From: a virus
Lineage: Monodnaviria > Loebvirae > Hofneiviricota > Faserviricetes > Tubulavirales > Inoviridae
Strand: one strand, 5' to 3'
IMG/VR virus record: IMGVR_UViG_2529292905_000001
DNA: 7,960 nt
Shown one piece after another: positions 1-3,000 of the stretch. The stretch's first letter is position 1. Each line of letters begins with the position of its first letter. Made by a program: the position numbers.

Positions 1-3000
1 GTGCTCATTTGCACGCGGTTTGCCAGCTTGAGTCTTCAACGCTGGGAAGATGCGGCAAACGGCAAATCGGCATACCAGCCAGCCTATATCCGTCATGCAC
101 AGGCCAATTATGAAAGAGGAGAAGCTTAAGTTCTGGAATCCTGAACGAATAACGACTACCGGAAAATCACTTCGTATCACTCAGATACGATTTAACATAA
201 TATACATTATGCGCACCAATGGTAAGGATGGCAGAATCTGGCGGGAATCGTTGACACTGGCCGTCAACTGGCTACTATCGACAGTGATTCAAAATCATCC
301 GTTTCTCCAAACGAATCAGAATCAAATGTCTGTCAGCAGTAAGTGAACGGCCTGACCTCACCAATCAGGCCTGTTCATCCAGTTAGTTGGTAAATCTGTA
401 CCTGATACACGAGAATCAAACACCACTTCTTCAGTGCCATCACCATGATGCCGGATAATCTGGTAACCGGATTGCGGGTTCTGGCTCTCAGCTTCATAAG
501 CAGCCCGGAATGCTGGATCTTTGAGAAGCATCACTTTCAGCTCCTGATGTGTCATGAATTTTTCCATGATAAGCCCCGATGAATGCTGCCGCGCCGAATC
601 AGCCATAACGCTGAAAATGGAAACTGTACGGCTTGGCCAACCCCGGACAGCAACAAAACAAGTTTTGTCACTGACCGGCGTTATCTTTCAAAACAGACAG
701 TTAACGATTTTTTGTCTGGTGTTTATGCGTGAAATTTCGTGCGTACGAAATTCACCACCAATAAACAAACGGACGATGACTGACCGGAAAAGCAATGCCG
801 TCAGCATCATGACCACGCATTACCTGATTGAGAAGCCTTCTGACTTCACGGCGCTCAGGCCTGGTCATCATCATATTGCGATACCAGGACGGCGATTTAT
901 CAAACCATCTGGCACAACTGGCAAAATGTGAACCTACACGACGATAAGACTTAAGGTGGCCACCGGGAAGTCGGTCACGCGCCTTATTTTTTACAGACAT
1001 AATAAATCCTCTAAGTAACTGAATACCTAGAAGATGTCGTACTGTTCATACCCCATAAAAGTTAACGCCATAATAAAAATCCATACAATCAGTTCAGGTT
1101 GTCCCGGAACAGTTCACCGCTCCTCGCGGCGCTGCGGGGCGTCGCCCTGCTCCGGTCAACCTTTCTGACCTGAAGCATCACCATAATATCAGTCTTGTTG
1201 CTTTCACTGGTACGGGAACCGAAGAAGCTCCAGCCGGAACTGGCCTTACTGTCTTTCTGTTCAGCAAGGCCACCAAGTAAAATAATATCACCATCTGCAA
1301 GGCTGACTTCGGTTGTTACATCACGCTTGATAAGGGTTGGCGAGTTATTGACGCCGGTTTCAGTGGTCACAAAGTTGGAAAGCTGCTGCTGAATCTTGAG
1401 ATCCATTGTCCGACTTTTGATTGATGGCGTCACGTTAAACAAAACACCGCTGGAACGATATTCAACGGATTGCGTGGTCGTATTGTTATTCACCGTAACA
1501 CTGCCCAGTACTGGCACATCAGAGCCGACTGAAAAAGACGCTGAGGCATTATTTTTTACCCGCAGTCGTGGCGCACTGACAACAGTAAAACGACTGTCGG
1601 TTTTCAGCAGATTGAAAATGGCATCAATGGAGCCGGTTCGAATATTGATAAAATTATCCAGTCCGGCAGCACCAACTGAAATATTGAATTTATCAGACAG
1701 AATTTTAGCCGCTAAAAGAATGCCGGAGCCGTCAGACTGCGAGGTCTGAACCTCAAAAACATAACCAGAAACAACCACTTCATCACTCATCGTATCCAGC
1801 GAAGTGACCAGTGTTTTCAGGATGGCGATATCCTCTTTCGTACCATAATAAACCAGAATATCACCGGTTCGATTGATGTAGTTGCTTGCCCCTGATGAAC
1901 CTTTTAGCGAATCGTCAGAAATCACGGCTCCACTGTTATTGAAGGAGCCTGAAACGTAGCCGCCAAGAATATCAGACAGGTAGGCAACAGAACGGTACTG
2001 AGGCGTATAAGTCCATGTAAAACGTGGCTTAACCGGCTCTTTCGGCGTATAGGGCGCGATAAAATCAACACCCTTTTTCGTCCATATTCGAATGTTCATA
2101 TTGCCAAGATAACGGGTTACAAATTCCCGTTCATCAATATCAGGTGTTAACCTGAATGTAATCATTCGTTCATCATTAACAAGCTGTGGATCTAGCATAT
2201 ACGGGACTTTAAGCACCTCACTGTAAATAAGAGAAATAGCCTCCGGTAGCTTGACTTTATTTAATTCAAGCTCTGCCCCTGCGAAAGCACATGAAGAAAA
2301 TAGTAGCGTTAATGCGAGTGAAATCTTTTTCATTATTTTTTCCCCGTATAAAGCGTCACACGCTCACCATCAATAATTCCGCTCATCAACATCCCTTTGT
2401 AATTAAAACTGGATGCAGGAACGGCACGCAAAACACCGGCACTGTTAACAAGAATCACAAACGCCCTGCCTTCACTGGTCATTCTCCCTGATATACGCCA
2501 CTCGGTTGAAAGTGGCGGTTCAGCTGGTTCTGAGGGAGTATCTGGTGCTGGAGTAGCAGCGGAAGAACGAAACATGGCCGCATCACGTACATCTGTTGTA
2601 GCCAAATCTGGCGAGGGATCGCTTCGGCCAAACGTGCTGAAAAATGAGTAAATCAGCCAGCCTGACCCGATAAACATCAATGGAAAAAGCACAAGAAAGA
2701 ACCTGACTTTGCCAGAATTCCAGATGCTCTGGCGTTTATCTGTCTGCTTTTCATTACCGTTATTTCCTTCATAGCTTTTGTAAAGTTCAAAAATATCAGG
2801 GTTATATTTATTGCGATAACTGGTGACGAGGTTGCTTTTATAGATTTTGTGGCCTGAATATACGTCAATGCAGTAATGATTATTCAGGCCCAACGCTTTC
2901 AGCTTGCGCATCCGGTAAGTTGTTTCTATTTTGTCTTTCAGAAAGCGAGCAATATTAGAAAGTGACTGATTTACAATAACCAAATCACAGCTAATACCCG

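Follow-up and report, generated by a model that had tools for sequence, protein, structure and literature searches.

The window analysed here is a stretch of 7,960 nucleotides from the inovirus record IMGVR_UViG_2529292905_000001. It holds an exact dif site followed by a set of filamentous phage genes, and it raises the question of how a phage that encodes no integrase came to lie at dif, and by which of the known routes XerC and XerD, recombinases of its host, would have placed it there. The sequence is 100% identical to positions 2717820-2725779 of the chromosome of Escherichia coli O55:H7 strain DEC5E (NZ_CP038383.1), where it matches one place only. Very probably, the window is the dif end plus the conserved core of an integrative mobile element that exploits Xer (IMEX) of the CTXphi type, formed by a phage of the CUS-1/Ypfphi lineage in the chromosomal dif of DEC5E. 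Positions refer to the window unless a locus is named. L001 is the DEC5E locus with 12-kb flanks; a window position equals the L001 position minus 12000.

The dif site and its chromosomal position

Positions 190-217 are the exact reverse complement of E. coli dif, GGTGCGCATAA-TGTATA-TTATGTTAAAT (consensus GGTGCGCATAATGTATATTATGTTAAAT), and read ATTTAACATAATATACATTATGCGCACC on the plus strand. The consensus was tested as an 11-bp XerC arm, a 6-bp centre and an 11-bp XerD arm. With up to three mismatches allowed, this is the only match in the window, and none of 200 shuffled sequences gave one; by arithmetic, about 2e-13 exact matches to a 28-mer are expected by chance in 7,960 bases on two strands. 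The exact dif of the preliminary description is borne out, and so is the orientation of its arms, with the XerD arm facing the flank and the XerC arm facing the phage (Table 1). Inovirus genes had been placed within about 900 bp of it. The gene for the pIV secretin indeed ends at 1089, 872 bp from dif, and two small phage open reading frames (ORFs) lie in between.

In E. coli K-12 MG1655 a single exact dif is found between yneL and hipA (L002:4251-4278), in an empty site that reads ...ATTTAACATAATATACATTATGCGCACC aatataaaccaagg... The DEC5E dif has the same two neighbours. The ydeQRS/ydeT fimbrial genes and the pseudogene remnant of yneL are on its left, and hipA and hipB follow beyond the element on the right. 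FtsK-orienting polar sequences (KOPS, GGGNAGGG) occur nine times on the plus strand and not at all on the minus strand of the left 50 kb, and in the right 50 kb three times on the minus strand and not at all on the plus strand. These motifs converge on 190-217, as expected for the true terminus dif. A plasmid-borne or otherwise non-chromosomal copy is excluded by the yneL-hipA position and by the KOPS convergence, and 190-217 is confirmed as the chromosome's own dif.

Unlike the phage, the flank on the XerD side (1-189) varies among strains: in many E. coli genomes the match to the window does not begin until position 94 or position 190. In strain SF-173 this flank (L004:10348-12000) carries genes for an SDR oxidoreductase and a hypothetical protein in place of the yneL remnant. 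The prophage has only two KOPS of its own, both on the minus strand, at prophage positions 2922 and 5811 (window 3128-3135 and 6017-6024). Both point toward the regenerated dif, two being too few to exclude chance, and FtsK translocation to the intact dif would thus be unopposed.

Junctions and attachment sites

No second dif is present in the 32-kb locus when up to three mismatches are allowed; the partner site has an 11-nt spacer. It was found by reading the sequence and by a scan allowing variable spacers. This site B lies 1.7 kb past the window end, on the minus strand at L001:21713-21681 (window numbering 9681-9713), and reads GGTGCGCATAA-TGTACGACTCG-TTATGTTGAAA, that is, an exact XerC arm, the 11-nt spacer and an XerD-like arm with two mismatches. 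The second dif-like site expected at phage distance is thus present. A further site, A, stands in inverted orientation 34 nt from site B (GGTTCGCACAA-TGACG-TTATGCTAAAG, L001:21620-21646), and a G+C-rich hairpin fills the gap between the two.

The ends of the prophage were defined by the K-12 empty site and by a tandem junction in strain SF-173. In DEC5E the sequence aatataaaccaagg is preceded by a second TTATGCGCACC at L001:21703-21713. As the K-12 empty site carries a single dif with the same flanks, the DEC5E insert is L001:12207-21702, 9,496 bp, placed exactly between the dif centre and the XerC arm. Strain SF-173 has two tandem prophages, and the junction between the copies reads ...TTTCAACATAA CGAGTCGTACA TTATGCGCACC aatggtaagg... 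This phage-phage junction is site B of the phage itself in double-stranded form. It settles where the phage ends and shows that phage and dif have the same XerC arm.

The element is flanked by dif (L001:12190-12217) on one side and by a hybrid site (L001:21681-21713) on the other, where the empty site has a single dif. The left junction joins the phage XerC arm to the chromosomal centre and the chromosomal XerD arm, which gives a perfect dif; the right junction joins the chromosomal XerC arm to the phage centre and the XerD-like arm. The term "exact dif" therefore holds for the sequence and needs refinement as to origin, since the site is a recombinant whose XerC arm was supplied by the phage. 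Both junctions are what one exchange at the XerC cleavage point of the dif top strand would be expected to produce. In Yersinia pestis the two kinds of arm can be told apart. The XerC arm of the dead junction, which is chromosomal, is GGTGCACATAA, and the phage's own arm is the E. coli type GGTGCGCATAA (L006:993-1025 versus L006:9735-9767). An integration there would accordingly be expected to change one base in the XerC arm of the dif that it regenerates, and the E. coli-type arm hints at an E. coli-like original host.

These junctions bear on the route used by TLCphi, in which XerD acts first, independently of FtsK, an element-encoded XafT-like factor activates Xer recombination, and integration is reversible. 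The two small ORFs beside dif could in principle encode such an accessory factor. Neither has a Pfam match at E <= 0.01, and DUF3653, which we take to be the XafT family, was matched by none of the 10 ORFs (of 13) scanned against Pfam; scans against Pfam, PHROG and PADLOC gave activation by these ORFs no family support. The chromosomal centre stays in the regenerated dif and the phage centre in the dead site, as would be expected of an exchange at the XerC cut alone, and the hairpin anatomy would be superfluous for the TLCphi route. We regard this route as very improbable, the least probable of those considered.

Folding and conservation of the attachment hairpin

The sense strand over sites B and A folds, as DNA, with -31.6 kcal/mol, compared with -12.8 +/- 2.7 kcal/mol for shuffled sequences (z = -7.0). 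Wherever both strands of a relative were folded, the sense strand had the better fold, by 1 to 4.7 kcal/mol, and three positions of the stem are G.T wobbles on the sense strand and A.C mismatches on the other. Across 12 distinct relatives, 94.3% of the cells are paired, compared with 28-50% when the partners are slid by one to three columns. Seven pairs are altered on both sides by compensatory changes; the observed values were reached in 0 of 500 shuffles. The spacer of site B is 9-11 nt long in the relatives (TGTACGACTCG, TGTCAACGCG, TGTGCCACACG, TGTGTGACTCG, TGTGATCAAGA and TGTATGACG), and all variants open with TGT, as does the dif centre TGTATA. The spacer of site A is short, 5-6 nt. By this computational evidence the inverted dif-like sites pair in the (+) single strand, as in the CTXphi type. 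Further marks of that type are present in the junction sequences: a crossover at the XerC point, homology limited to the adjoining bases, and an intact dif at one junction with a presumably non-functional site at the opposite one.

The tip of the attachment hairpin (L001:21648-21685, window 9648-9685) is a G+C-rich stem followed by TTTT on the plus strand, directly after the cargo genes described below. The stem probably doubles as a predicted intrinsic terminator of the repressor-cargo transcript.

A route of the VGJphi type would do without this fold. A double-stranded replicative form with one functional dif-like site, here B, would be recombined with dif by XerC and could later be excised by Xer. 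The preliminary description had named it among the possible models, and the positions of the junctions fit any exchange at site B that is initiated by XerC, on single or double strands. Known Xer substrates (dif, cer, psi) have 6-8 bp between the arms. As a duplex, site B has 11 bp (9-11 bp in the relatives), against 7 bp in VGJphi (PMC3089051, Table III). Instead of a single double-stranded site with a centre of about 7 bp, the element has two inverted sites, with an 11-bp spacer at the site of crossover. The conserved inverted site A with its 5-nt spacer, 34 nt away, and the compensatory changes are not needed by a double-strand mechanism, which also leaves the strand-specific wobble pairs unexplained. 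In the literature, Ypfphi and CUS-1phi are listed as members of the CTXphi type and not of the VGJphi type (Das, PMC4246890). A VGJphi-type integration is accordingly judged unlikely, with a small residual probability. The preliminary description had put CTXphi, VGJphi, CUS-1 and Ypfphi into one class. This stands as far as the use of Xer is concerned; the anatomy, with two inverted foldable sites, is that of the CTXphi type specifically and not of the VGJphi type.

Four points weigh against integration from a folded single strand. A double-strand recombination at site B, begun by XerC, would give the same junctions. The advantage of the sense strand in DEC5E is small (-27.6 versus -26.6 kcal/mol). 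The sequences behind the covariation are closely related, with the changes confined to a few lineages. Finally, incoming Ypfphi is reported to favour insertion between the copies already present over insertion into the intact dif (PMC4266046), which is not predicted by the simple CTX model. The single-strand route is nevertheless preferred because the spacer has 11 bp, because the inverted site is complementary, and because the wobble pairs are specific to one strand.

Proposed integration mechanism and prophage status

In filamentous phages such as Ff and CTXphi the gene-sense strand is the packaged (+) strand. Here this would be the minus strand of the window, which would fold at the two inverted sites with the 34-nt G+C-rich hairpin between them, site B corresponding to attP1 and site A to attP2. 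The stem would offer one XerC-binding and one XerD-binding arm flanking a partly unpaired centre. Host XerC would cut site B after the XerC arm and swap the strand with the top strand of dif, and the TGT/TGTA shared beside the cut would stabilise the exchange; the role of XerD would be structural only. Replication would then turn the pseudo-Holliday junction into an integrated prophage, with endonuclease III as a probable cofactor by analogy with CTXphi. The outcome of these steps would be the arrangement that is observed: a perfect dif on the XerD-arm side (190-217) and, toward hipA, a dead hybrid site whose spacer measures 11 bp. For CTXphi, integration of the folded (+) strand by a single XerC exchange has been shown (PMC4246890, PMC3089051). 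Dependence on host XerC and XerD has been shown for CTXphi (PMC4246890) and proposed for Ypfphi (PMC4266046), and the attP sites of Ypfphi and CUS-1 have features for direct integration of single-stranded DNA (PMC3089051).

As a duplex, the hybrid site with its 11-bp spacer should be no Xer substrate, so insertion should not be reversible by Xer, as is expected from a CTXphi-type anatomy. New phage DNA would arise from rolling-circle replication across tandem copies, with a CTX-type circular junction ...CGAGTCGTACA|TTATGCGCACCAATGGTAAGG. Tandem copies are present in E. coli SF-173 (two) and in Y. pestis NCTC5923 (two); DEC5E has a single copy. The latter is therefore probably a locked, non-producing lysogen, and it is predicted not to be excisable by Xer.

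A related reading takes the adjacency to dif as historical, the DEC5E copy being a locked remnant that no longer moves or makes virions. It is compatible with the CTXphi-type assignment and fits the single place at which the window matches the DEC5E chromosome, although a chromosome assembly would not reveal a free replicative form. Against it stand the 11 ORFs of the window, all full length and 97.6-100% identical to those of infectious Ypfphi, and the two intact attachment sites. We consider the chances of this reading about even.

Prophage genes and relatives

The features of the locus are listed in Table 1. The inovirus gene set is in canonical order (pII, pV, coat proteins, pI/Zot ATPase, pIV secretin) by Pfam and PHROG. 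Among the 13 ORFs of the 9.5-kb element, no tyrosine or serine recombinase (integrase) and no transposase family was matched in Pfam or PHROG, in agreement with the claim that no integrase is encoded; the Pfam scan covered 10 of the 13 ORFs and the PHROG scan nine, including the three small coat or membrane ORFs outside the Pfam run. By its position beside dif, the ORF at 358-606 matches one of the Ypfphi ORFs YPO2280a/YPO2281, which are next to dif and without predicted function (PMC4266046). YPO2273, the Ypfphi homologue of the repressor, was described as RstR-like (PMC4266046).

Table 1. Features of the dif end, the prophage core and the cargo slot in DEC5E
Feature	Position	Strand	Evidence and remarks
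Chromosomal flank, XerD side of dif	1-189		yneL pseudogene remnant / ydeT fimbrial side; DEC5E annotation; homologous to K-12 left of dif
dif	190-217	-	Intact 28 bp, regenerated junction; exact match
XerD arm of dif (plus-strand order)	190-200
Central region of dif	201-206
XerC arm of dif	207-217
Prophage, left part in window	207-7960	-	7,754 bp of 9,496 bp; continues to L001:21702 (window 9702)
Small phage ORF, function unassigned	358-606 (annotated 358-555)	-	PHROG 6642, E = 1e-53; 97.6% amino acid identity in Ypfphi
Small basic phage ORF, function unassigned	752-1000	-	No Pfam family; Ypfphi 98.8%, Brenneria relative 77%
pIV-type secretin (virion export channel)	1089-2333	-	Pfam Secretin, E = 1.3e-24
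pI/Zot-type assembly ATPase	2333-3358	-	Pfam Zot, E = 2.2e-26
pVI-like minor coat protein (DUF2523)	3362-3649	-	PHROG 974, E = 6.6e-30; annotated DUF2523
pIII-like receptor-binding minor coat protein	3662-5374 (annotated start 3662-5224)	-	Gene order; PHROG 3942, E = 5e-252, function unknown; Ypfphi 99.5%
pVIII-like major coat protein	5439-5672	-	PHROG 2186, virion structural protein, E = 1e-28
Small membrane protein, pVII/pIX position	5707-5958	-	PHROG 3679; annotated membrane protein
pV-type single-stranded-DNA-binding protein	5961-6278	-	Pfam Putative_G5P, E = 1.2e-52
pII-type rolling-circle replication initiator	6290-7342	-	Pfam Phage_CRI, E = 1.2e-73, and G2P_X_C, E = 3.6e-34; Ypfphi 100%
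Helix-turn-helix repressor, RstR position, divergent	7514-7960	+	Pfam HTH_3, E = 1.6e-9; PHROG 3557, transcriptional regulator
139-aa membrane protein (cargo)	L001:20060-20479		PHROG 4174
368-aa CAP12/Pycsar-type TIR-domain protein (cargo)	L001:20505-21611		Pfam PF10137, E = 3.6e-20

Compared with Ypfphi as it lies in Y. pestis NCTC5923 (L006), the element has a nucleotide identity of 99.54% over 7,832 bp, and all 11 window ORFs align with those of Ypfphi without gaps. This near-identity of the core, the lack of a recombinase, the partner site, the single dif of the K-12 empty site and the chromosomal position support the description as a Xer-dependent filamentous prophage. At least 80% of the window is present in 99 of 5,426 complete E. 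coli genomes. A megablast search of the GenBank phage collection with the window gave no match; evidently, Ypfphi and CUS-1 are not deposited there as phages. Relatives were drawn from bacterial genomes (Y. pestis, Photorhabdus, Brenneria and Klebsiella spallanzanii) and from IMG/VR contigs. Two contigs with this enterobacterial prophage (L008, L010) are filed under bins named Aerococcus and Candidatus Nanosynbacter, which is most likely binning contamination; L010 also has a hipA-sized ORF beside E. coli dif-flank sequence.

The cargo slot between repressor and attachment site

Past the window end, the two cargo genes of Table 1 (L001:20060-21611, window 8060-9611) occupy a hypervariable slot that extends from the repressor to the attP2-like site (L001:19961-21619). 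Equivalent slots are present in L004, L005, L006, L054 and IMG/VR loci, and no fewer than 14 unrelated sequences reach to within 2-4 nt of site A. The TIR cargo protein matches the PADLOC models PDC-S35, PycTIR and the CBASS TIR effector as a candidate, and its gene occurs in one of the 5,426 complete E. coli genomes, that of DEC5E. Other slots carry STM4504/CBY_0614 (abortive-infection family), zinc-binding ECs_2282, DUF6953 or DUF3892 genes. On the right the cargo ends sharply at site A, and its left boundary varies, lying at phage position 7832 against Ypfphi and at 8269 against SF-173. The cargo end of IMG/VR contig L018 is the same as that of DEC5E.

In Vibrio, CTX-type inoviruses with hypervariable, defence-rich regions have been described (PMC12715192). 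Tentatively, the slot may be a hypervariable cargo site through which phages of the CUS-1/Ypfphi type bring single-gene anti-phage defences to the enterobacterial dif, and from which one cargo gene with half of the hairpin may have spread to hundreds of plasmids within a unit resembling an insertion sequence (IS). In a bolder version, the folded site itself might mediate cassette exchange, by analogy with integron attC sites; the unfixed left boundary argues against a two-ended cassette mechanism.

Plasmid copies of site A and a separate element at dif

A fragment of about 78 nt, made up of site A and the G+C-rich hairpin and about 90% identical, has copies at 476 places in plasmids, where it follows a STM4504/CBY_0614 gene on many large E. 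coli plasmids. In the one plasmid examined, pLD67-1-165kb (L003:2295-5138), the fragment lacks site B's XerC arm and is enclosed in an IS-like unit of 2.8 kb. The unit contains a transposase pseudogene of the ISNCY family; its inverted ends are imperfect, and it has a direct repeat of 13 bp, ACAAACATTGTAG. The unit is inserted directly beside a plasmid dif-like site, TGTGCGCACAA-TCTATC-TTATGTTAAAT. That the plasmid copies are mini-IMEXs in plasmid Xer sites was rejected because of the missing XerC arm and the transposase-bearing unit in pLD67-1-165kb; the fragment looks like a transposon passenger.

A separate 3.4-kb element is also found at dif (L010:4811-8268; L055:2522-5993, E. coli GD33). 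Toward hipA its border is GGTGCGCATAA-TGTGTTGA-ACATGTTAAAT, in which the spacer has 8 bp; its opposite border is an intact dif. It has three to four ORFs, all hypothetical genes with no Pfam match, and is present at dif in 50 of the 5,426 complete E. coli genomes, alone or beside the prophage. At the dif-proximal end, some 26 nt of the chromosomal flank are repeated. The element may be a non-phage IMEX that is as yet uncharacterised.

Significance

The finding is a correct one that is already known, as published work assigns CUS-1 and Ypfphi to the CTXphi class with single-stranded DNA integration; the cargo beside the attachment site is the only new detail of the DEC5E copy. Its weight as a discovery is small, and its main use is in annotation. 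An exact dif beside inovirus genes marks the CTXphi-type class reliably, the exact ends of the DEC5E prophage are now given, and its "perfect" dif has been exposed as a recombinant. The TIR cargo would extend the idea of defence-carrying hypervariable regions from Vibrio CTX-type inoviruses to E. coli.

Comparison with known systems

VGJphi- and TLCphi-type elements share with the DEC5E prophage the use of host XerCD, insertion at dif and the lack of an integrase of their own. They differ in features not found here: a single double-stranded attachment site with a 7-bp centre and reversible integration in the VGJphi type, and a XerD-first exchange with an activation factor, likewise reversible, in the TLCphi type (PMC4246890).

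CTXphi uses the secretin of its host, and the phage described here encodes its own pIV secretin. The anatomy agrees in the absence of an integrase, the two inverted dif-like sites, the forked hairpin of the (+) strand, the intact dif regenerated on one side and, in SF-173 and Y. pestis, the tandem arrays, and both phages have a divergent repressor and variable cargo near the attachment site. The attP1 of CTXphi El Tor is AGTGCGTATTA-TGTGGCGCGGCA-TTATGTTGAGG, with a spacer of 12 nt that starts with TGT (11 nt, also starting with TGT, here), and its attP2 is AATGCGTATTA-TACGCCA-TTATGTTACGG, with a spacer of 7 nt (5 nt here; CTXphi sites from PMC3089051, Table II). The distance from stem to stem is about 90 nt in CTXphi and about 34 nt here, and there is no cholera toxin in the DEC5E element. 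The likeness is one of design. Searches with sequences of the element brought up enterobacterial-type relatives alone.

CUS-1 was reportedly published in 2002 and Ypfphi in 2007. CUS-1 of E. coli O18:K1:H7 shares species, insertion site and conserved core with the DEC5E prophage, as judged from the literature. It has orf1/orf1a in the variable slot (PMC4266046), whereas the DEC5E cargo occurs in no other complete E. coli genome. CUS-1 and Ypfphi are about 99% identical over 7.1 kb and differ in the ORFs at the other end (PMC4266046).

Ypfphi of Y. pestis (YPO2271-YPO2281) inserts itself at dif, and an intact dif is regenerated at one of its ends (Derbise and Carniel, PMC4266046); an inverted pair of XerC/XerD sites like that of CTXphi and tandem repeats were also reported (PMC4266046). 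It differs from the DEC5E prophage in cargo, with YPO2271/2272 in a genome of 8.7 kb against the 139-aa membrane protein and the 368-aa TIR-domain protein in 9.5 kb, and in the host XerC arm of the dead junction, GGTGCACATAA in Y. pestis and GGTGCGCATAA in E. coli. The near-identity reported above runs from the XerC arm through the repressor, both prophages lie at dif, the 85-nt attP end is 98.8% identical, and sites A and B are the same in both.

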